A stretch of DNA of 64,000 nucleotides from Promethearchaeota archaeon (GCA_016839585.1 JAEOTZ010000042.1:3859-67858); one strand, 5' to 3'. Counted from the stretch's first letter, positions 3 through 13,223 are shown. Notes: generated by a model not told the origin, from the sequence alone. Translations and numbers: made by a program.

Positions 3-1466
3 GATCTAAATTCTTTTTTAGTTACATGGCAGGATAAAGATCCTCCAATTTTTTGCCATACTTCTGGAACAACAGATAATAAATTATCCAATTTAAAATG
101 GTTTCATATGTCTAGAGATATTATTGAAAGGCAATGGGCTCCAGGAATGCAAGCTATTTTTGAATCAAGTGGTTTGGATACTAAGTCATCAGCAATTATT
201 TTTATACCATCTAGATTGGAATTTGATGGAATTAGGAGAAGTGAAGATACTACCCATATTTCATTATATTCTTCAGAATTTTCTCAGAGAATTATGCTTT
301 CTGTTGTTAAACCTTATTCATATACATTCTATGAATATAGAAATTCAAAGAATTTAGAAATTATATCTAAGATTTTACTTATGGAAAATATTGCAGTTAT
401 TTCTGCTCCTGCTATAACAATTCTGGGTTGGGCTGATATAAATAGATTACAAACTGGCTTAAAGAAATCTCTCAATTCAATAGATTCGGTTAATAATTCA
501 ATCTTAGAGAGTTTTTTAAATAAAATTAAAAAAAAAGGCTTGAGTTCTGTAGCAAGAGAAATTCAAGAAAAATTGTCAGAAAAATTATCTAAGGCTACAT
601 TGATTTTTAGTATTAGTTCTCTTTCTAAATCAGACTGGGAATTAATTCGTACATTGATGAAATGGGAGACAGGTAAAGAAAAATTCACAAATCTCTATGT
701 ATCCTCTGAGATCGGACCTTTTGCGGCAAGTATCAATAAAGGAAATTTTGAAATTTCACGTTTAAATAGAATGTATGTTTTTCCTTTAACATTGCCTGTT
801 ATTGAGAGTAAAGGTAAGAAGGAATTAATATCTAGAAGTAAAAATAAACTTGGTAAGCTTCTTGTATCTAGATTGAATAATTCAAGAGTTCTAATCAATA
901 TTGATACAGGAGATATTATCTCTGTTAAGAACAAAGAAGCAATTCCTCAAATTGATGGGAAAATTTTAAGATCACAATTCCAATTAAAATATCCTATTAA
1001 GATATCAAATCAAATTAAAATTAACTCAAACTATACTATCTACGCCGGAGATTACTTTTCGTTAACTGATTTTGAAATAGTTGAACCGCGTGTTCTATTA
1101 AATCGTTTGAAAGAACAATGTAATTTTACAAGTGATTCCTTAATATTAATTAAATTTATTGAAAAAGAGAAAATTAAGTGGAAACTAATCATACCTTCAA
1201 GTAAAAATACAATTTGCTCAGATGAACGCAGTGTGAGAAAATTTATCTTAAAATATCCAGAATTTGATGAAATACATCAAGCAATTAAAGACCAAATTAT
1301 CCATTTTCAGTTAATCAATGGTAATCCCGTAGATTTTCTAGCCCACCGCGATGAGATGTTAATGAGAGTTAGAAATGGCAAAATTCCAAAGGGAATTCTT
1401 AAAAAATGGTCTTTATATGTTATTAAACCTGAACAACCCCAATTAATTAAAAAAGAAAAAATTTGA
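3..1466 (+). CDS. Adenylate-forming enzyme family protein (ANL / F390-synthetase / GH3-like); N-terminus lies outside the window
   Basis: The frame of ORF 108..1466 stays open back to base 3. The upstream translation ...PPIFCHTSGTTDNKLSNLKW carries a (T/S)SGTTxxxK-type AMP-binding P-loop. I could not name a motif in the rest of the protein. Confidence 0.4.
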   Translation, partial: DLNSFLVTWQDKDPPIFCHTSGTTDNKLSNLKWFHMSRDIIERQWAPGMQAIFESSGLDTKSSAIIFIPSRLEFDGIRRSEDTTHISLYSSEFSQRIMLSVVKPYSYTFYEYRNSKNLEIISKILLMENIAVISAPAITILGWADINRLQTGLKKSLNSIDSVNNSILESFLNKIKKKGLSSVAREIQEKLSEKLSKATLIFSISSLSKSDWELIRTLMKWETGKEKFTNLYVSSEIGPFAASINKGNFEISRLNRMYVFPLTLPVIESKGKKELISRSKNKLGKLLVSRLNNSRVLINIDTGDIISVKNKEAIPQIDGKILRSQFQLKYPIKISNQIKINSNYTIYAGDYFSLTDFEIVEPRVLLNRLKEQCNFTSDSLILIKFIEKEKIKWKLIIPSSKNTICSDERSVRKFILKYPEFDEIHQAIKDQIIHFQLINGNPVDFLAHRDEMLMRVRNGKIPKGILKKWSLYVIKPEQPQLIKKEKI

Positions 1467-2672: not shown

Positions 2673-3074
2673 TTATTTCCAGACTACCAAAATACTTCCA
2701 GCAACCAAAAATCCAATAAGATAAAAGATATATTCCAATAGAAACAGTTTTAAACCTCTATCATTAAAATTAGTTTGATTTAGTCCTATCGTGGCTACAA
2801 AACCTATCCAAAGTAATAAATTTAGCAACAGTGCAGGACCAATCTCGGTTATACCTGCTAAAATCATCACTACATCTATAATTAATACGGTAATGAAACT
2901 TGTTGGAATCATTATAATTGTATCTCTTATAATCTTTGATTTAGGTTCGCTTTCTTTTCCTACTAATTTTAACCATAAATTACCGAATGCGAATGGAAAA
3001 TACCAAAAAAAATGTATTGCAAAATATATTAATGCGACTACAATAACTGCTATCCAATTAATTTCAAAAGCCAT
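2673..3074 (-). CDS. DUF1761-like small integral membrane protein, copy B
   Basis: Paralogue of 1477..1878, near-collinear with high identity by eye. I preferred the ATG at 3074 over the GTG at 3080. Confidence 0.6.
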   Translation of the reverse strand: MAFEINWIAVIVVALIYFAIHFFWYFPFAFGNLWLKLVGKESEPKSKIIRDTIIMIPTSFITVLIIDVVMILAGITEIGPALLLNLLLWIGFVATIGLNQTNFNDRGLKLFLLEYIFYLIGFLVAGSILVVWK

Positions 3075-3191
3075 TTCCACACCAAAAAATAAATTTTTAT
3101 TTTAAATTTATAATTTTTAAGGATTATATAATTAAGCTGTATTTATTTCTTCTTTATTTAAAATATAAATAAAAATTAAAATGAAGTCAAA

Positions 3192-5503: not shown

Positions 5504-6034
5504 TTGAGTAAAGAAATTTATAAGTGGGAAATAATCGGAATGGTTTTTATTATTCTAGTCGGTTCATTTTTTCATTTTATTTTTGAATTATCTGGTGAAA
5601 ATTTAATTATCGCTGGAATCGCACCTGTAAATGAAAGTGTTTGGGAGCATTTAAAGTTAGGTTATTGGCCTTTAGTATTTTTTTCTCTAATTGAATATCG
5701 ATTTATAAAAGATGAGGCTAAAAATTTAGGAATAGCTAAATTATTGGCAGCTCTAACTATTATAGCGACAATTATCGTAATATTTTATTCCTATACTGCT
5801 ATTATTGGGGAAGAAATTTTATTTATTGATATTCTAAGTTTTATCTTAGGAGTTATTTTTGGACAAATTGTAAGCTATAAATTAATGAGTAGCTCAAAAT
5901 TACCACAATGGACTAATATGCTTTCTTGGATACTTTTTGTAGGGTTAGGATTTCTTTTTATATTATTCACGTTTTACCCACCAAAATTACCAATTTTCAA
6001 AGATGGTGTTACTGGTGGATATGGAATAGTATAA
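5504..6034 (+). CDS. Integral membrane protein, unknown function
   Basis: 176 aa with about 5 hydrophobic helices. The start is uncertain (TTG at 5504, or an internal ATG). Confidence 0.45.
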   Translation: MSKEIYKWEIIGMVFIILVGSFFHFIFELSGENLIIAGIAPVNESVWEHLKLGYWPLVFFSLIEYRFIKDEAKNLGIAKLLAALTIIATIIVIFYSYTAIIGEEILFIDILSFILGVIFGQIVSYKLMSSSKLPQWTNMLSWILFVGLGFLFILFTFYPPKLPIFKDGVTGGYGIV

Positions 6035-6051: not shown

Positions 6052-6837
6052 TTACCTTAAGTAAAATTCCTTTCTTCTATCATTAATAATATCATTGAAT
6101 TTATTCAGTTTCTTATCTCTAGCTTTTTCTATATCAATTTCTACAAGATCCACAGATACTTTATCTAAGGGGGCTGATGATAAGACCTTTCCGTCATATG
6201 AAGTAATTTGACTCTCCCCTGTGAAATTAAAATTATCCTCGCCCCTTATCTCTCGTCCAATTCGGTTAGCTGTTAAACCATAAACTCTATTTTCCAAACA
6301 TCGTGTAGTCATTGCTTTTTGGCAATATGGAAGTACTAAATTTGCTGGATGAGCAATGATATCGGTCCCAAGAAGAGTTAGAGATCGAGCAGTTTCAGGA
6401 AAGAACCAATCAAAGCATATCATTATGCCTATGTTGACTCCATTAATTTCATATACTTTTAATGGTCTGTTACCGGGAGCAAACCATAATTTTTCTTTAT
6501 AATATAAGTGAAGTTTTCGATACACTCCCAACAACTCTGAATCAGATATTATCATAGCAGAATTATATAAATCCTCTTTTTCTTTTTCTATAAACCCTCC
6601 AACTATAGTAGCCGATGTTTTTTTAGATAGACTCTTTAAAAATTCAGCAGTCTGTCCGTCTAATCCTTCCGATAATGATTCCGCTTCCTTTTTAGAAATA
6701 AATGTATAACCTGTAGCAAACAATTCAGGTAAAACTAGTAAATCTGCTTTTACTTTGAAAGTGAGTTCTGTAACTTGATCAAAATTTATTTCTTTTTCAC
6801 CAAAAATGGGAGATGTTTGAATATATCCAACTTTCAT
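6052..6837 (-). CDS. Carbon-nitrogen hydrolase (nitrilase superfamily amidohydrolase)
   Basis: 261 aa. It shows the family E-K-C triad context: LVLPELFATGY (Glu), YRKLHLY (Lys) and IGIMICFDWFFPE (Cys). Confidence 0.85.
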   Translation of the reverse strand: MKVGYIQTSPIFGEKEINFDQVTELTFKVKADLLVLPELFATGYTFISKKEAESLSEGLDGQTAEFLKSLSKKTSATIVGGFIEKEKEDLYNSAMIISDSELLGVYRKLHLYYKEKLWFAPGNRPLKVYEINGVNIGIMICFDWFFPETARSLTLLGTDIIAHPANLVLPYCQKAMTTRCLENRVYGLTANRIGREIRGEDNFNFTGESQITSYDGKVLSSAPLDKVSVDLVEIDIEKARDKKLNKFNDIINDRRKEFYLR

Positions 6838-6887
6838 TTAAATCACAATTATTTGTAATTAGTGAAAAATTAGAAGATATGGTTATA

Positions 6888-7736
6888 TCATTTGATTTTT
6901 GTGTCTTTGTCTTTTCTTACAGTATATAAATCTTCATACTGGGCAGTTGAGATTGCTCGTTCTTTAAACTGCCTTTCAATTATATCTTCTAAACCATCTT
7001 CAAAGAATACATTCTTTTTGAATTTCTTTGCGGGGGCTCCTACATAAATAAAGTTCTCATCTAATACTTGACCTACAGTAGTCATCGAACTCCCTGCTAG
7101 AATAGAATTCTTTTTGATATGGGTTCCTGGCATTACTACACTATGAGCACCGACCATTACATTATCCTCTAAAACGGTTTTTCTTAATATAAATAAATTT
7201 CCGATTATAATTGCTGATTGGATAAGAGCCGATTGGCCAATTGTCACGCTTTTACCAAAATCTATGAATTCTGTATCAATAAAACCCTCAAAGAGAGAAT
7301 TTGAATATTTTGTTTTAATCCCAAATAATTTTAAACATATATTATCCATAAATGGGAAGGGAAATTTGTGAGATAACCATAATGGCCATTTTTTTATAAC
7401 ACTTCTTAAGCACCAATATCGATAATCCTTATCAGAAGGATCTCTAAGAAACACGCCTTCTCGAGGTTTATGAATTACATTAATAATAACCAGAAAGATT
7501 TTAGCAAATATTAATGAGACCGCGATGGATGTTATATACATTACAAAAATCAAAAGTGGTAAAAGAACTAAAAAATGTATAAACCTAGGCTCATAGAGTT
7601 TCCATAGCAACCAAAATTCAAATTGAATTGAAAATATACTAATCCAAATAAGAAATATATAAAAAATTAAGTATCTCTTTTTAACTAAAAGTAATGTTGT
7701 ATGTGGTCCACATTTTAAACTTGCAGGTACTGACAT
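6888..7736 (-). CDS. Membrane-anchored left-handed beta-helix (hexapeptide-repeat, acyltransferase-like) protein, paralogue 1
   Basis: 282 aa. Two or three N-terminal TM helices are followed by HKPREGVF..DYRYW...PFPF. Hexapeptide-like turns come next (GKSVTIGQSALIQSAIIIGN..VLEDNVMVGAHSVVMPGTHIKKNSILAGSS), ending in Y.GAPAKKF. Confidence 0.6.
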   Translation of the reverse strand: MSVPASLKCGPHTTLLLVKKRYLIFYIFLIWISIFSIQFEFWLLWKLYEPRFIHFLVLLPLLIFVMYITSIAVSLIFAKIFLVIINVIHKPREGVFLRDPSDKDYRYWCLRSVIKKWPLWLSHKFPFPFMDNICLKLFGIKTKYSNSLFEGFIDTEFIDFGKSVTIGQSALIQSAIIIGNLFILRKTVLEDNVMVGAHSVVMPGTHIKKNSILAGSSMTTVGQVLDENFIYVGAPAKKFKKNVFFEDGLEDIIERQFKERAISTAQYEDLYTVRKDKDTKIK

Positions 7737-7742
7737 GATATC

Positions 7743-8645
7743 TTATTTCTCCTTATTATTATTATTTAGAAGTTCTTTTTTATCTTCATCAATATTTACT
7801 TCTTGTTTAATTTGATACTTAATTTCTTCATCTACATGCTTTTCATAAATTACTTCACGATTTTGTTCAGCATACTTGTTTGGTTTTAATTTCTTGGCAA
7901 ATTGACCTAAATAAATCCAACCTGCTTCTATCAATTGATTAGGAATAGTCGTGCTGAATGTGCCAATTACAGATTCTTTACCCATTTTCGTACCTGGCGC
8001 TATATTTGAAACACCTCCAACAACTGTATAATCACCAAGGATTACAGTTTTAATTATTAGATACTTTCCAACAACCATTGACCCCATCACAACAGCACCT
8101 TGCCCTACAGTTACATTTCGACCAAATTTAATGAATCCCCCACTCGCCCAGGCATCTTGCATATGACTAGAAAAATCAACATGGATACCCATCCATCTAA
8201 AACCCCACATTACAATCCAGGGTAAAGGTCCATTACTCATAAACCAAAGGGCTAGCTTTTTTAGTTCTACACGTACTCTCCAAAATTCATAATCTAGATC
8301 GCCCTCTTCAGCCCTGAAAACACCTTCTTTAGGTTTATGAACCATATTTATTATTAGAAGGAATGCTTTTGTGAAGATGGCAATACCAAATACAAAAATA
8401 AAATATAATACAAACAACCATACAGGTATAAGAAACATAGTAATTATCCAATTATTAATTAATCTCGAGACATCAAAGAAAACAGTTAATGCCATATATC
8501 CGGAAACCCACATAATAGGGATATATAAAGCAAGGAATTTATAACCCATTTTACTTATAGCACTAGTAGTTACAAAATCAATAATATAATCTGGTTTTTC
8601 ATTATTTTTCTTATTCGAGTCAAATTTTGCTAGTGGGTCATTCAT
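7743..8645 (-). CDS. Membrane-anchored left-handed beta-helix (hexapeptide-repeat) protein, paralogue 2
   Basis: 300 aa with the same layout as paralogue 1: TM hairpin, HKPKEGVF..DYEFW...PLPW, then GRNVTVGQGAVVMGSMVVGK..ILGDYTVVGGVSNIAPGTKMGKESVIG and Y.GQFAKKL. Confidence 0.6.
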   Translation of the reverse strand: MNDPLAKFDSNKKNNEKPDYIIDFVTTSAISKMGYKFLALYIPIMWVSGYMALTVFFDVSRLINNWIITMFLIPVWLFVLYFIFVFGIAIFTKAFLLIINMVHKPKEGVFRAEEGDLDYEFWRVRVELKKLALWFMSNGPLPWIVMWGFRWMGIHVDFSSHMQDAWASGGFIKFGRNVTVGQGAVVMGSMVVGKYLIIKTVILGDYTVVGGVSNIAPGTKMGKESVIGTFSTTIPNQLIEAGWIYLGQFAKKLKPNKYAEQNREVIYEKHVDEEIKYQIKQEVNIDEDKKELLNNNNKEK

Positions 8646-8669
8646 TTTTACTTTCCTTGAAATTTTTTT

Positions 8670-9563
8670 TTATTTTAGCTTCAAATTTTGTTTTAATTCT
8701 TCTGCTCTTTTCAGATCGTTCTCTGTAATTTGTAAATATTCCATAAGCCTTTTCTTAAAGATTTTCCTGAGGGGAGCTCCAAAATAATACGAGTTCCCTT
8801 TTAAGATATTATATTTTGTTGCTCCTGTCATTGGTAACAACCAAGAATTATTTCCGGTGTCCACACCAGGAGCAAAACAATTAAATCCTGCGGCAGTTAC
8901 GTTATTTCCTATTTTCACTTTTGCGAAAGAAATATTTCCAAAAATTCCCTCAACTGCATGTGAACTGATACCTGGATTTGTCCCAATATAGCTATTTTCT
9001 CCAACTTCTACAAATCTATCCCCTGCAAGTTGTTCCTCAATGACAGATCCTTTCCCTATTTTATTAGTCCCTACAAAGTTATACATCCATTTTAACAACC
9101 AGGGAAATGGACCTCGAGAAAAAGCATTTTTGGGATATTTAATAATAAAACTTTTGAAATGGTACAAATCTAAAGTCTTACTAGGTATATTTCGAGGGAT
9201 AATGCCTGATTTGGAAGGAGATTTTTTTTCCGAGTAGTTCCAAAACCAGCGAGTTACTAGAGCTACAATAAACAAATGTATTAAATAGCATATTATAATA
9301 ACAAATGGTATAGTTATGGAGGCAATGAGAGAAGGTAAATTAGTAAAAATAAACATAAAATTTTTTATTTCCAAAAAATAAGGTAAATAAAAAAGCATCA
9401 TGTACGTCATAAAAATTATACTTGGGATTAAAAAAGAGCAAAAATAGATGACATAGAACAGTGGTAACCATAAACGTAAATTTAAACTAATTTCTTCTTT
9501 AATAATCGTATTTCCTGAATTTTCTTTCTGATCTGAACTTTTTGACTCCAACTTTTTTCCCAA
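8670..9563 (-). CDS. Membrane-anchored left-handed beta-helix (hexapeptide-repeat) protein, paralogue 3 (most divergent)
   Basis: 297 aa with a TTG start inferred. It has a TM hairpin, PFPW, GKGSVIEEQLAG..VEVGENSYIGTNPGISSHAVEG..VKIGNNVTAAGFNCFAPGVDTG and Y.GAPLRKIF. Confidence 0.55.
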   Translation of the reverse strand: MGKKLESKSSDQKENSGNTIIKEEISLNLRLWLPLFYVIYFCSFLIPSIIFMTYMMLFYLPYFLEIKNFMFIFTNLPSLIASITIPFVIIICYLIHLFIVALVTRWFWNYSEKKSPSKSGIIPRNIPSKTLDLYHFKSFIIKYPKNAFSRGPFPWLLKWMYNFVGTNKIGKGSVIEEQLAGDRFVEVGENSYIGTNPGISSHAVEGIFGNISFAKVKIGNNVTAAGFNCFAPGVDTGNNSWLLPMTGATKYNILKGNSYYFGAPLRKIFKKRLMEYLQITENDLKRAEELKQNLKLK

Positions 9564-9684
9564 ATAAGTTATATATTTCCTTTTTTAACGCTTTTTTTGT
9601 ATATTTCTTGATTATATACTTTTGAACATTTAAAAATTTTCAGATTCAAAATCATAGGATAAGTGGAAAAAAATATAAAGAAAA

Positions 9685-10521
9685 TTATTTTTTCTTTTTA
9701 GGGAACCAAGGAATAAAAGTGCTGGTTCTTCTTTTATATTCTGCGAATTCATCGTCTCCTTCATGGATTTTGTTTAATAGTCGCACTCCTGATACATTTA
9801 TTATTTGGAACGTGATATAGGCAGGAGCAAAAAAAGTAATAAAGCCCCAGGGTACTCCTAGAGCAATGATAAAAATTCCCCACCACATTGTTGTTTCCCC
9901 GAAGTAATTAGGATGTTGTGTATATTTCCATAAACCTTCATCCATTACTTTTTTCGTTCTGTTAGGATTATTTAAGAATTTATAGAGTTGGTAATCTCCA
10001 ATCGTTTCAAAGTAAAAACCAATAATCCATATTAAAGTACCAATCCATAGTGTTAATCCTGTGAAATCTAATAAATTTTCAACTTGAGGACTTTCAATGA
10101 TATTAATCCATAATACTGAAAAAACAACAATGAAAACGACTAATCCCTGGAATAAATATATCTTAGTTAAACTCTTTAGAGCTACATTTTTACCACTTTC
10201 TTTCCATCGTTTTCTCATTGCGGCATAACGGCGATCTTCTGGTTTTCCTCGATTTCTAATATATACATAAGTACTTAGCCTTATCGCCCATAATAAAACT
10301 AATATTGTTACAATTAACTGGCGAATTAAAAAAGTCTCATTTAATACAAAATAGAAGTACAAGCTTGTAAAGGCAACCACAAAATACGCAGGTCCATAAA
10401 AAATGTCCATTATTGCGTTATTTTTTTTTATTGTACCAACAAGAAAAGCTATTAGAATGTAAATAAAAAGCGCTAACGCCGCATAGCCAACTATTAACAA
10501 CGAATTATTAATAAAAATCAT
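9685..10521 (-). CDS. DUF1295 / steroid 5-alpha-reductase-like polytopic membrane protein
   Basis: 278 aa with multiple TM helices. The motif LWKYTQHPNYFGETTMWWGIFI matches the conserved ...RHPNYFGE..WWG signature of this family. Confidence 0.65.
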   Translation of the reverse strand: MIFINNSLLIVGYAALALFIYILIAFLVGTIKKNNAIMDIFYGPAYFVVAFTSLYFYFVLNETFLIRQLIVTILVLLWAIRLSTYVYIRNRGKPEDRRYAAMRKRWKESGKNVALKSLTKIYLFQGLVVFIVVFSVLWINIIESPQVENLLDFTGLTLWIGTLIWIIGFYFETIGDYQLYKFLNNPNRTKKVMDEGLWKYTQHPNYFGETTMWWGIFIIALGVPWGFITFFAPAYITFQIINVSGVRLLNKIHEGDDEFAEYKRRTSTFIPWFPKKKK

Positions 10522-10988: not shown

Positions 10989-13223
10989 ATGACCAATAAC
11001 TCATTCTCGTTAACAGATCTGTACCCAAAATATGTAATCAATTCAAAAGGCGAAAAGAAAAAATTCGATGAGAACAATATTGCTAAAGTGCTAAACAAAG
11101 AGACAGGCTTGGATATGCACATTGCTGAAAAAGTTGCTGAAGATGTAATAAGAAAAATAATAGGTCTTGGAATAGAGGAGATTACGACTAATTATATTAG
11201 AGAACTAGTTTGTGTGGAATTAACTCAACGCGGCTTGAATAAATATAGAAATCTGTTCGCTCGAGCTATAAATTTGGAGAATATCAGCTTTAAATTAGAT
11301 GAGACTTTTATTGAAAATTATATAGGAAAGCAGCCATCTTTCGGTCCATTAGGTTATATTACATATAAAAGAACATATGCCAGAATAATTGAAAGTGAAA
11401 ACAGAAAAGAAGAATTCTGGGAAACCATTAGAAGAGTGGTTGAGGGTTGTTATTCAATCCAAAAAGAACATTGTATTAAACTTAGTTTACCATGGAGCGA
11501 TGCAAAAGCTCAAAAATCTGCTCAAACCATGTTTAAAAAGATATGGGATTTCAAATTTTTGCCTCCTGGAAGAGGTTTATGGATGATGGGGACAGAATTT
11601 ATAGCACGCCATGGTTCTATGTCTTTAAATAACTGTGGATTCGCCTCTACAGAAGATATTGATCTAAAATATTCAAAAGCCTTTGAATTTGTAATGGATG
11701 CTTTAATGTTGGGGGTTGGAGTAGGTTTTGATACAAAAGGAGCAGGAAAATTTAAAATCAATAAGCCACAAGAAGGTAATTTTGACTATCAAATTCCTGA
11801 TAGTAGAGAGGGTTGGGTTGAGGCTTTAAAATTAATACTTGAAGCTTATTTCTTAGGGAAGCAAGTTCCAACTTATAATTTTAGCCTCATTAGACCGGCA
11901 GGAGAACCAATAAGAGGCTTTGGAGGGATCGCCTCCGGACCAGGTCCTTTAAAAGAAATGCTCGAAGATATTCAAAACATATTGGAAGCCCGAGTTGGGC
12001 AACCGATTACCTCTGTTGATATTGTTGATATAATGAATTACATTGGTAAATGTGTGGTAGCTGGTAACGTTAGAAGGAGCGCAGAAATTGCTTTAGGAGA
12101 TCCAGCTGATTTAAGTTTTGTGACATGTAAACAAGATCAAGAAAAATTATATTCTCATAGATGGGCTAGTAACAATAGTGTTTTTGCTGTAAAGGGCTTG
12201 GATTATTCTTTTATCGCAAATCAAATAGCAGTTAATGGAGAGCCTGGAATTTTTTGGCTAGAAAATGCTAAGACTTATTCAAGAATGGGAGATAAACCAG
12301 ATTTTAAAGATAAGAAAGCTGCAGGAGTAAATCCATGTGGAGAGCAAACTTTAGAATCATTTGAGCTCTGCTGTCTTGTAGAAACTTTTCCATCTAGACA
12401 TGAATCTTATAAGGAATTTCAAGAGACTTTGAAATATGCTTATCTCTATGCCAAATCTGTTACGCTTGTAAATACGCATTGGCAAGAAACTAATGCTGTT
12501 ATGCTTAAAAATCGGAGGATGGGAATTTCCCAAACAGGGATAATAGAAGCTTTTGTGAAATATGGGAGAAGATCTATATTAGAATGGTGTGATAAAGGAT
12601 ATAAATATTTACAGGAACTAGACGAACAATACTCTGGTTGGCTTTGTATACCGAAAAGTATAAAACTCACAACTGTAAAGCCAAGTGGGACCGTAAGTTT
12701 GCTCCCAGGAGTACCACCTGGTATTCATTATCCTCATTCTGAATATTATATTAGAAGGATACGCATTTCAAAGAATTCTGACTTAATTAAACCACTTAAG
12801 AATGCGGGTTATTATATTGAAGAAGATTCATATTCACCAAATACAGTTGTTGTTGAATTCCCTGTCCATGAGAAATACTTCGATCGTTCAAAAAACGATG
12901 TATCTATCTGGGAACAAGCAGAGAATGCTGCTGCATATCAAAAGTATTGGTCTGATAATCAAGTATCAATAACAATTACATTTAAAGAAGAAGAGGCAGA
13001 TCAAATTAAATATGTTCTTGAATGTTACGAAGATAAATTAAAAAGTGCTAGTTTTTTACCAATCAAGGAACATGGGTATAAGCAAGCTCCATATGAAGAA
13101 ATAACAAAAGAAAAATATGAGGATATAATATCAAAAATAAAACCTTTAGATTTAGATACTACTAAAGATCGAGCAATTGGAGAACGGTTTTGTGATACTG
13201 AAGCTTGTGAAGTTCGATTCTAG
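10989..13223 (+). CDS. nrdJ: Adenosylcobalamin-dependent (class II) ribonucleotide reductase with N-terminal ATP-cone
   Basis: 744 aa. The N-terminus is ATP-cone-like (VINSKGEKKKFDENNIAKVL...). The active-site region NPCGEQTLESFELCCL and overall collinearity fit class II RNR. Confidence 0.85.
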   Translation: MTNNSFSLTDLYPKYVINSKGEKKKFDENNIAKVLNKETGLDMHIAEKVAEDVIRKIIGLGIEEITTNYIRELVCVELTQRGLNKYRNLFARAINLENISFKLDETFIENYIGKQPSFGPLGYITYKRTYARIIESENRKEEFWETIRRVVEGCYSIQKEHCIKLSLPWSDAKAQKSAQTMFKKIWDFKFLPPGRGLWMMGTEFIARHGSMSLNNCGFASTEDIDLKYSKAFEFVMDALMLGVGVGFDTKGAGKFKINKPQEGNFDYQIPDSREGWVEALKLILEAYFLGKQVPTYNFSLIRPAGEPIRGFGGIASGPGPLKEMLEDIQNILEARVGQPITSVDIVDIMNYIGKCVVAGNVRRSAEIALGDPADLSFVTCKQDQEKLYSHRWASNNSVFAVKGLDYSFIANQIAVNGEPGIFWLENAKTYSRMGDKPDFKDKKAAGVNPCGEQTLESFELCCLVETFPSRHESYKEFQETLKYAYLYAKSVTLVNTHWQETNAVMLKNRRMGISQTGIIEAFVKYGRRSILEWCDKGYKYLQELDEQYSGWLCIPKSIKLTTVKPSGTVSLLPGVPPGIHYPHSEYYIRRIRISKNSDLIKPLKNAGYYIEEDSYSPNTVVVEFPVHEKYFDRSKNDVSIWEQAENAAAYQKYWSDNQVSITITFKEEEADQIKYVLECYEDKLKSASFLPIKEHGYKQAPYEEITKEKYEDIISKIKPLDLDTTKDRAIGERFCDTEACEVRF

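Follow-up and report, generated by a model that had tools for sequence, protein, structure and literature searches.

The bacterial poly-lysine and poly-ornithine synthetases Pls and PosA carry their polymer-making end as a membrane domain fused behind an adenylation (A) and a thiolation (T) domain. In Pls, the order is A-T-TM1-TM2-C1-TM3-TM4-C2-TM5-TM6-C3, where TM denotes a transmembrane helix and C1 to C3 are related to acetyltransferases (PMC8506220). AlphaFold and RoseTTAFold models of the PosA terminal domain place six bent membrane helices under three five-turn left-handed β-helix (LbH) domains, which pack with approximately threefold symmetry and are each preceded by two helices and a strand (PMC10522769). 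The domain has been shown to be necessary for catalysis; according to the same paper, no structure of it has been solved experimentally, and neither how it works catalytically, which residues form its active site, nor how the product is exported has been established (PMC10522769). The sequence network in the same study was limited to proteins of 1100 to 1800 residues (PMC10522769), which excluded forms without adenylation and thiolation domains. Here, we describe three adjacent genes, designated A, B, and C, in a 64,000-nt stretch of DNA (“the window”) from Promethearchaeota archaeon (GCA_016839585.1 JAEOTZ010000042.1:3859-67858), which is AT rich (approximately 30% G+C). On the evidence of profile comparisons, this triplet is a split homolog of the Pls/PosA terminal domain that lacks adenylation and thiolation domains, is conserved as a unit, and has repeatedly been fused. 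In the literature searched, we found no published description of split or stand-alone Pls-terminal-like proteins, from Asgard archaea or from any other source.

Homology to the Pls/PosA terminal domain

Judged by pairwise BLASTP alignment, A, B, and C are genuine paralogs whose similarity is far above chance (B-C, 32% identity, E = 8e-48; A-B, 20%, 7e-12; A-C, 24%, 5e-11). In all three, an LbH domain of hexapeptide repeats comes after two long hydrophobic helices. The Pfam Hexapep score is above the cut-off of 27 bits in C (30.1 bits) and is 24.2 bits in B and 12 bits in A, and the LbH assignment is further backed by many subthreshold NCBIfam LbH matches and by the AlphaFold model of a natural fusion described below. 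A juxtamembrane block, HKPxEGVF...DYxYW...PxPW, is near-invariant in B and C, whereas it is degenerate in A (SPSKSGII...LDLYHF...GPFPW). The tail Y-x-G-x-(P/F)A-x-K (Y-x-G-x-PA/FAKK) is present in each protein, and polar motifs are strongly conserved in all three. An earlier reading of the window, made from its sequence alone (the sequence-only reading), had assigned one common layout to the three proteins; this holds for the LbH domain and the tail, but the juxtamembrane block is shared in full only by B and C. Where that reading allowed two or three TM helices, a positive-inside count and the fusion model give A two long TM helices, not three. Neither Pfam nor NCBIfam searches found an AMP-binding (PF00501/TIGR01733) adenylation domain in A, B, or C, and no thiolation (PP-binding) domain was found in these proteins or in the scanned neighbors.

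TIGR02353, the NCBIfam model of the Pls-type terminal domain, is the best NCBIfam match of both B (1.5e-7, 30.2 bits) and C (3.6e-7, 28.9 bits) and the second-ranked match of the natural fusions (1e-9 to 1e-12, 34 to 45 bits). All of these scores (29 to 45 bits) stay below the curated cut-off of 423 bits. However, the match in B spans residues 60 to 263 and includes the TM region, which indicates more than hexapeptide-repeat similarity. When a combined A+B+C profile was compared with 1.84 billion representative proteins, it retrieved proteins of approximately 1300 aa that each matched in three stretches (5e-24 to 2e-21). Four proteins so found are synthetases with adenylation, thiolation, and TIGR02353 domains, the last scoring 578 to 615 bits against the cut-off of 423; the adenylation domain is present in the true family members P0242, P0243, and P0264. 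With hhalign, the alignment of Asgard three-module proteins matched the terminal domains of the four synthetases with 99.8% probability (E = 1.9e-30) over 652 columns, from query positions 23 to 794 and template positions 24 to 706 of 706 residues, that is, end to end.

The correspondence extends to single modules, with hhalign probabilities of 82 to 98% for every pairing of a subunit family with an individual Pls module. Every module in these alignments follows one blueprint: a TM pair, a G-x-(Y/F)-P...W block, an LbH domain, and then W/Y-x-G-x-PA. In Pls, every TM pair is followed by a “G-x-YP-L” block, and the juxtamembrane block of B aligns with it. The three repeats of a TM pair plus an LbH “C” domain are thus found module by module, at the level of the three-gene set. 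We also sought a one-to-one assignment of A, B, and C to C1, C2, and C3; subunit hidden Markov models (HMMs) and hhalign left it unclear, and the best mapping (C to C1, B to C2, A to C3) is weak and reverses the cyclic order. Overall, the resemblance to Pls/PosA, which the sequence-only reading had offered as an analogy, proves to be real homology on the combined evidence of TIGR02353, reciprocal profile matches, and hhalign.

Other curated families were tried and rejected. Models for maltose acetyltransferase (MAT), LacA, WcaF, WbbJ, NeuD/PglD, LpxA, LpxD, DapD/DapH, CysE, Vat, CatB, and YvoF all scored below their cut-offs, with A, B, and C at ≤30 bits and the fusions at ≤47 bits against cut-offs of 150 to 725. 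The proteins are therefore not placed in a characterized acetyltransferase family; such a placement is what the sequence-only reading had named as fatal to its proposal. Homologs of the same type exist in bacteria as unannotated, stand-alone, three-module proteins, namely, MBK8576353.1 (from a metagenome-assembled genome [MAG] of Elusimicrobia), P0205, P0210, P0227, and P0234, the last being a fusion to a short-chain dehydrogenase/reductase (SDR).

Conservation, natural fusions, and predicted assembly

Homologs of B form 387 clusters. The best 120 of the 387 are 68 to 89% identical to B, and every source-named one among these 120 comes from an Asgard (Promethearchaeota/Lokiarchaeia-type) MAG; databases label the homologs “hypothetical” or “isoleucine-patch superfamily.” A scan of species-representative genomes gave 48 loci, in which open reading frames (ORFs) were called and classified by similarity to the window proteins, yielding 32 split triplets. 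All lineage-named loci among the 48 are Asgard, and a few are titled just “uncultured archaeon.” The loci L003 to L050, which share 70 to 86% identity and the same gene order, carry differing Asgard “phylum” labels (Promethearchaeota, Hodarchaeota, Hermodarchaeota, Thorarchaeota, and Odinarchaeota); these labels look inconsistent, and we do not read them as a broad phyletic spread.

The gene order is A-B-C in 32/32 split triplets, with A-B junctions mostly of −8 nt and B-C junctions of −20 to +20 nt, so that the arrangement seen in the window is conserved across other Asgard genomes. The window itself holds only one triplet, and some genomes hold two in tandem (L020, L027, and L046). A CN-hydrolase gene lies 3′ of C, co-oriented and 2 to 66 nt downstream, in 19 of the 32 triplets, and a DUF1295 gene lies 5′ of A in 22, at a distance of ≤200 nt in 14. 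This indicates that the conserved unit is A-B-C and that both flanking genes are optional; we reject them as obligatory operon members. The co-occurrence of triplet, nitrilase, and DUF1295 genes, which the sequence-only reading had suggested as a check, is accordingly complete for the triplet, in its fixed order, and partial for its two companions.

Fusions of the modules occur in Asgard genomes as cyclic permutations of the same order: A-B (approximately 605 to 630 aa), C-A (approximately 525 to 540 aa), and C-A-B (P0122, 797 aa; P0397, 805 aa; P0398, 789 aa). Sets of LbH-TM proteins are thus found in split, two-module, and three-module forms, and several sets may be present in one genome. 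For example, an island of approximately 20 kb on a 473-kb contig (L053, JAHPZE010000001.1 1-18554; also L001) has three sets. One is an A-B-C triplet with its CN-hydrolase; the other two consist of A-B fusions of 609 and 628 aa, the longer of which is accompanied by a 316-aa C. A pair of genes for an ANL-fold enzyme and a DUF6512 protein, both also found in the window, lies between the sets. The island also contains genes for a zinc alcohol dehydrogenase, a CxxCxxCC protein, and a heliorhodopsin.

The AlphaFold2 (AF2) model of the C-A-B fusion P0122, built on a 72-sequence alignment, has a predicted local distance difference test (pLDDT) score of 88.5 and a predicted TM-score (pTM) of 0.89, which implies a single compact body in which the relative placement of the three modules is confident. 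Within each module, two long helices of approximately 27 and 37 residues are followed by a strand, a pair of short helices, and an LbH domain with regular short strands; confidence is low only at the termini and in one linker. This order of elements is that of the PosA terminal-domain model. Individually, the modules are closest in Foldseek searches to CoA-dependent maltose and galactoside O-acetyltransferases, over their whole length (TM-score of approximately 0.57), whereas the whole P0122 model has no overall likeness to any PDB entry (query-normalized TM-score ≤ 0.16). Searches of PDB sequences with B and with A gave generic LbH matches only. Lysine and arginine residues number 7 to 9 after TM2 versus 1 to 2 in the TM1-TM2 loop, and under the positive-inside rule, the N termini and LbH domains would be cytoplasmic, as in Pls.

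The soluble LbH acyltransferases form homotrimers. A heterotrimeric membrane assembly of A, B, and C had been proposed on the basis of the window sequence, and it gains support from the invariant gene order, the cyclic fusions, the P0122 model, and the pseudo-threefold homology to Pls/PosA. An A+B+C heterotrimer is strongly indicated by this evidence, with a pseudo-trimeric form, inferred from the fused paralog, in which the three LbH domains would pack as one trimer atop a six-helix bundle. All three modules of Pls are reported as required (Kito et al., 2013, cited in PMC8506220).

Candidate active site and alternative readings

The motif SSH202AVEG of A contains a His that is invariant in 32 A orthologs. 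In C3 of Pls, the same alignment column is occupied by the His of QTHLFED; in P0205, P0210, and P0234, which are bacterial three-module proteins, it is occupied by the LPH His of module 2; and 29/32 distant, mostly single-module relatives likewise have a His there (SSHVVD, SGHLID). The column is Ser in B and Ala in C, and each of P0205, P0210, and P0234 has kept the His in only one module. This pattern would fit the change of an ancestral homotrimer with three active sites into a pseudo-trimer with one. We suggest that each assembly retains one such His and has one main active site at an interface containing A, with B and C as diverged partners.

We think it likely that A, B, and C form one membrane-embedded, pseudo-threefold LbH acyltransferase, a split version of the approximately 700-residue Pls/PosA “polymerization” domain that has no adenylation or thiolation domain. 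The complex would draw on a cytoplasmic donor with an activated acyl or aminoacyl group, most likely a CoA-type thioester, as in the closest solved folds, and would attach this group to an amine or hydroxyl on an acceptor that is either membrane associated or exported. A divergent ANL enzyme encoded nearby might make the donor. Its predicted fold supports this candidacy, as does an AMP-binding gene that adjoins one bacterial three-module homolog.

Several observations weigh against this proposal. His202 is replaced by Asn in 45/171 Asgard A-type modules, B has its own invariant SSHxxD block (DFSSHMQD) approximately 28 residues upstream of the His202 column, and a weak alignment puts the catalytic His of the ATH-P motif of maltose acetyltransferase on Asn196 of A, not on His202. 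Given these three points, the position of the active site is something that we infer; its composition is guesswork. A-B fusions of 606 to 611 aa that lack an adjoining C gene (L018:2119-3939, L022, L023, L029 to L031, L033, and L053:7629-9458) retain the His motif in module A and do not fit a simple 1:1:1 rule; to close a ring of three modules, they would need C from another set or a different stoichiometry. Neither a carrier-protein gene nor a phosphopantetheinyl transferase gene was seen in the locus. Finally, the ANL gene was not found beside the distant relatives examined or beside the three-module fusion P0397, which means that its link with the triplet may be one of synteny only; a 539-aa ORF near L057, a distant relative with a single module, shows no relationship to the ANL family. 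We regard the ANL gene as an unproven candidate partner on the basis of its proximity.

The ANL gene is cut by the edge of the window, and its product has no match in Pfam (PF00501 included), NCBIfam, or PDB sequences. However, the AF2 model of the full-length protein, P0277, has a pLDDT of 88.8, and its top 50 Foldseek matches are all ANL enzymes, led by PaaK1 (4e-13) and including the acyl-CoA ligase BT_0428, GH3 amido synthetases, DltA, and the adenylation domains of nonribosomal peptide synthetases (NRPSs). The motifs HTSGTT, YVASE-GP, GD, and GK-PKG-LKKW (P-loop/A3, A5, A8, and A10) are conserved, and S91/G92/T94, E306, D374, and K533/K537/K538 are invariant. The predicted fold and these motifs bear out the earlier description of the partial gene as ANL-like. 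The family comprises 306 clusters of approximately 546 to 557 aa, and all of its named members are from Asgard MAGs. A member lies 0.1 to 4.8 kb from an LbH set in 24/49 loci, a figure bounded by the flank length examined. The CN-hydrolase scores 130 bits with PF00795 against a cut-off of 23 and has an intact Glu38/Lys108/Cys141 triad. Pfam confirms both it and the DUF1295 protein as what the sequence-only reading took them to be (Table 1). The score of the CN-hydrolase with the archaeal nitrilase equivalog NF040852 (282 bits) is below the cut-off of 500, and no substrate is assigned to it.

These neighbors bear on a more specific alternative, that of a Pls-like polymer synthetase acting in trans, in which the ANL enzyme would activate an amino acid or diamino acid, A, B, and C would polymerize it through isopeptide or amide bonds and extrude the product via the six-helix bundle, and the CN-hydrolase would trim or recycle the polymer, in the way that PldII does beside pls. 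The end-to-end homology to the polymerization domain favors this alternative, as do the frequent closeness of an ANL-fold enzyme with conserved adenylation motifs and an intact, amidase-type CN-hydrolase just downstream of more than half of the triplets. The acceptor of Pls is reportedly the free polymer, with the donor alone bound to the enzyme (Yamanaka et al., 2008), which makes a donor supplied in trans conceivable. We nevertheless consider this alternative unlikely. The locus shows neither a thiolation or carrier domain nor a phosphopantetheinyl transferase, the folds nearest to the ANL enzyme are aryl- and acyl-CoA ligases and GH3 acyl-acid amido synthetases rather than amino acid adenylation domains, and many triplets, as well as the distant relatives examined, lack neighboring ANL and CN-hydrolase genes. 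Furthermore, bacterial homologs without adenylation and thiolation domains are found in operons with SDR, glycosyltransferase, and NDP-sugar (nucleoside diphosphate sugar) genes; the neighbors at L051:8001-10043 and L052:8001-9956 encode an SDR, a GT1 glycosyltransferase, a GMC oxidoreductase, and NDP-sugar enzymes, or a 722-aa AMP-binding enzyme. These partners hint at acylation of lipids or glycolipids in the bacterial branch.

A related and broader idea, which we offer as speculation, is that the Asgard proteins constitute an expanded, hitherto undescribed class of modular membrane acyl- or aminoacyltransferases and that the Pls/PosA polymerase descends from such free-standing enzymes. They would work with a dedicated, highly divergent ANL enzyme and no carrier and would build or decorate an amide- or ester-linked surface polymer or lipid.

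It is improbable that the three proteins are independent paralogs, each a membrane-anchored, homotrimeric O- or N-acetyltransferase with a substrate such as a surface-glycan sugar or a lipid head group. The His kept by most of the lone, single-module relatives speaks for this, and homotrimeric members of the wider family probably do exist. However, the three types of the triplet always occur together, in the same order and in overlapping genes, and A, B, and C have been fused to one another repeatedly. B and C also lack the His that the lone relatives keep, the three-module fusion is predicted to fold as a single body, and their counterpart in Pls is modeled as one pseudo-trimer.

Within the LbH regions, A has His202 as its only His, C has only H198 and H205 (H-x6-H), and B has none after His161 of the first coil. 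A noncatalytic or non-acyltransferase LbH assembly, that is, a structural or γ-carbonic anhydrase (γ-CA)-like membrane module resembling the CA and CA-like (CAL) subunits of plant complex I, would agree with the best PDB sequence matches of B (3r1w, 5.7e-5; also the heterotrimeric CA/CAL of 7ar9) and with the loss of the candidate catalytic His from two of the three subunits, but it is very improbable, since B and C have no His-x4-His zinc pair, the closest folds over the whole length are CoA-dependent acetyltransferases, the homologous Pls/PosA domain is needed for catalysis, and polar motifs are conserved in A, B, and C. The identification of any of the three as a γ-CA was rejected because the zinc ligands (His, His-x4-His) are missing from all of them.

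Locus layout and comparison with known systems

Five co-oriented ORFs on the minus strand, in the order DUF1295-A-B-C-CN-hydrolase, are separated by 121, 24, 6, and 50 nt (Table 1). The ORF boundaries and all four spacings given by the sequence-only reading were reproduced. Upstream of the starts of A, B, and C lie GGA/GGAG elements that resemble Shine-Dalgarno sequences. A scan for promoters and terminators gave counts equal to those of shuffled sequence; it used a bacterial consensus, which is unsuited to an archaeal host.

Table 1. Features in and around the A-B-C triplet, with positions in the window
Feature	Position	Strand	Basis or remark
ANL-fold enzyme, C-terminal 487 of 557 residues (full length, P0277)	3-1466	+	AF2 model and Foldseek; candidate donor-activating enzyme
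DUF6512 small membrane protein	5504-6034	+	Pfam PF20122, 9e-38
CN-hydrolase (nitrilase superfamily) gene	6052-6837	-	Pfam PF00795, 1e-37
Subunit C, 282 aa; TM hairpin, HKPREGVF block, and LbH	6888-7736	-	ORF; TIGR02353 top NCBIfam match, 3.6e-7
HKPREGVF juxtamembrane block in C	7449-7472	-	Conservation across orthologs
Subunit B, 300 aa; TM hairpin, HKPKEGVF block, and LbH	7743-8645	-	ORF; TIGR02353 top NCBIfam match, 1.5e-7
DFSSHMQDAW block, first LbH coil of B	8148-8177	-	Invariant; kept in B modules of 626- to 628-aa A-B fusions
HKPKEGVF juxtamembrane block in B	8316-8339	-	His103, Pro105, Gly108, and Phe110 invariant in 34 orthologs
Subunit A, 297 aa, TTG start; TM hairpin, MAT-like LbH, and SSHAVEG motif	8670-9563	-	ORF; paralog of B and C; A-family HMM, 570 bits
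Motif S200-S-H202-A-V-E205-G in A, candidate catalytic His/acid pair	8946-8966	-	Invariant among A orthologs
DUF1295 membrane protein (steroid-reductase/ICMT clan)	9685-10521	-	Pfam PF06966, 1e-58

On the other side of the CN-hydrolase, the DUF6512 gene of the window is convergent with it across a 17-nt gap. In relatives, DUF6512 instead usually comes right after the ANL gene and in the same orientation (16 loci), which suggests that approximately 4 kb has been inserted between the two genes in the window. The DNA between them encodes two small membrane proteins of the DUF1761 type, a redoxin-like ORF, a PNPOx-like ORF, and UvdE. The two DUF1761-type genes (1477-1890 and 2673-3080, both on the minus strand) lie approximately 780 nt apart and are 84% identical (E = 8e-79), which marks them as the product of a tandem duplication of recent date; in relatives, this neighborhood has just one copy. 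An ORF antisense to the second copy (2791-3105, plus strand) is probably spurious. Beyond the DUF1295 gene, positions 10989 to 13223 (plus strand) encode a class II (B12-dependent) ribonucleotide reductase of 744 aa. Its counterparts in two relatives are longer (1245 aa at L021:754-4491 and 1092 aa at L025:433-3711), which suggests intein insertions there.

The triplet makes available, as separate pieces, a module otherwise known only in fused form, as the poorly understood polymer-making end of bacterial poly-lysine and poly-ornithine synthetases, the domain that makes the commercially used ε-poly-lysine and related cationic polymers. Because it is divided among three small subunits, each with its own conserved motifs, the interfaces, the single His motif, and the roles of the modules can be tested subunit by subunit, and the two- and three-module fusions found in nature offer controls for the split system. 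Archaea and bacteria alike have the module without adenylation and thiolation domains, which suggests that NRPS-like polymer synthetases arose when a preexisting membrane LbH acyltransferase was captured. For Asgard biology, the locus points to an abundant, strongly conserved (approximately 70 to 89% identity), and unannotated family of membrane enzymes and to an Asgard-only ANL family, either of which could make an envelope component.

Among known systems, the best solved match to each soluble module is the MAT/LacA group (also YvoF and NF058585), which shares N-terminal helices and an LbH domain with the Asgard modules and consists of trimeric LbH enzymes that use a CoA thioester. These enzymes are, however, soluble, lack a TM hairpin, and form homotrimers whose three active sites are identical; the Asgard proteins score with the NCBIfam models of this group at ≤47 bits against cut-offs of ≥300, and the ATH-P histidine is not obviously conserved in the Asgard modules. 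The γ-CA/CAL heterotrimer of plant and protist complex I is a precedent for a membrane-attached LbH trimer of three paralogous subunits, some of them catalytically degenerate, although A, B, and C lack its zinc His triad, have no relation to complex I, and differ in their membrane attachment. The bacterial three-module homologs have the same domain, likewise without adenylation and thiolation domains, and match TIGR02353 at 1e-46 to 1e-54, still below its cut-off. They differ in being single polypeptides where the Asgard triplet is split, and none of their SDR, GT1, GMC, NDP-sugar, or AMP-binding neighbors lies beside the Asgard triplet.

Compared with Pls/PosA itself, the Asgard modules are made as three separate polypeptides or, in paralogous sets, as fusions of two or three modules, whereas those of Pls are all part of one chain; the Asgard triplet has no fused adenylation or thiolation domain, and its host is an archaeon rather than a bacterium or fungus. 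The two systems have in common a threefold repeat of a TM hairpin, a juxtamembrane block, two helices, a five-turn LbH domain, and a W/Y-x-G-x-PA tail, together with a predicted cytoplasmic topology, homology over the whole domain of approximately 700 residues, and an [S/T]-H-x-x-[D/E] motif that just one of the three modules has kept.

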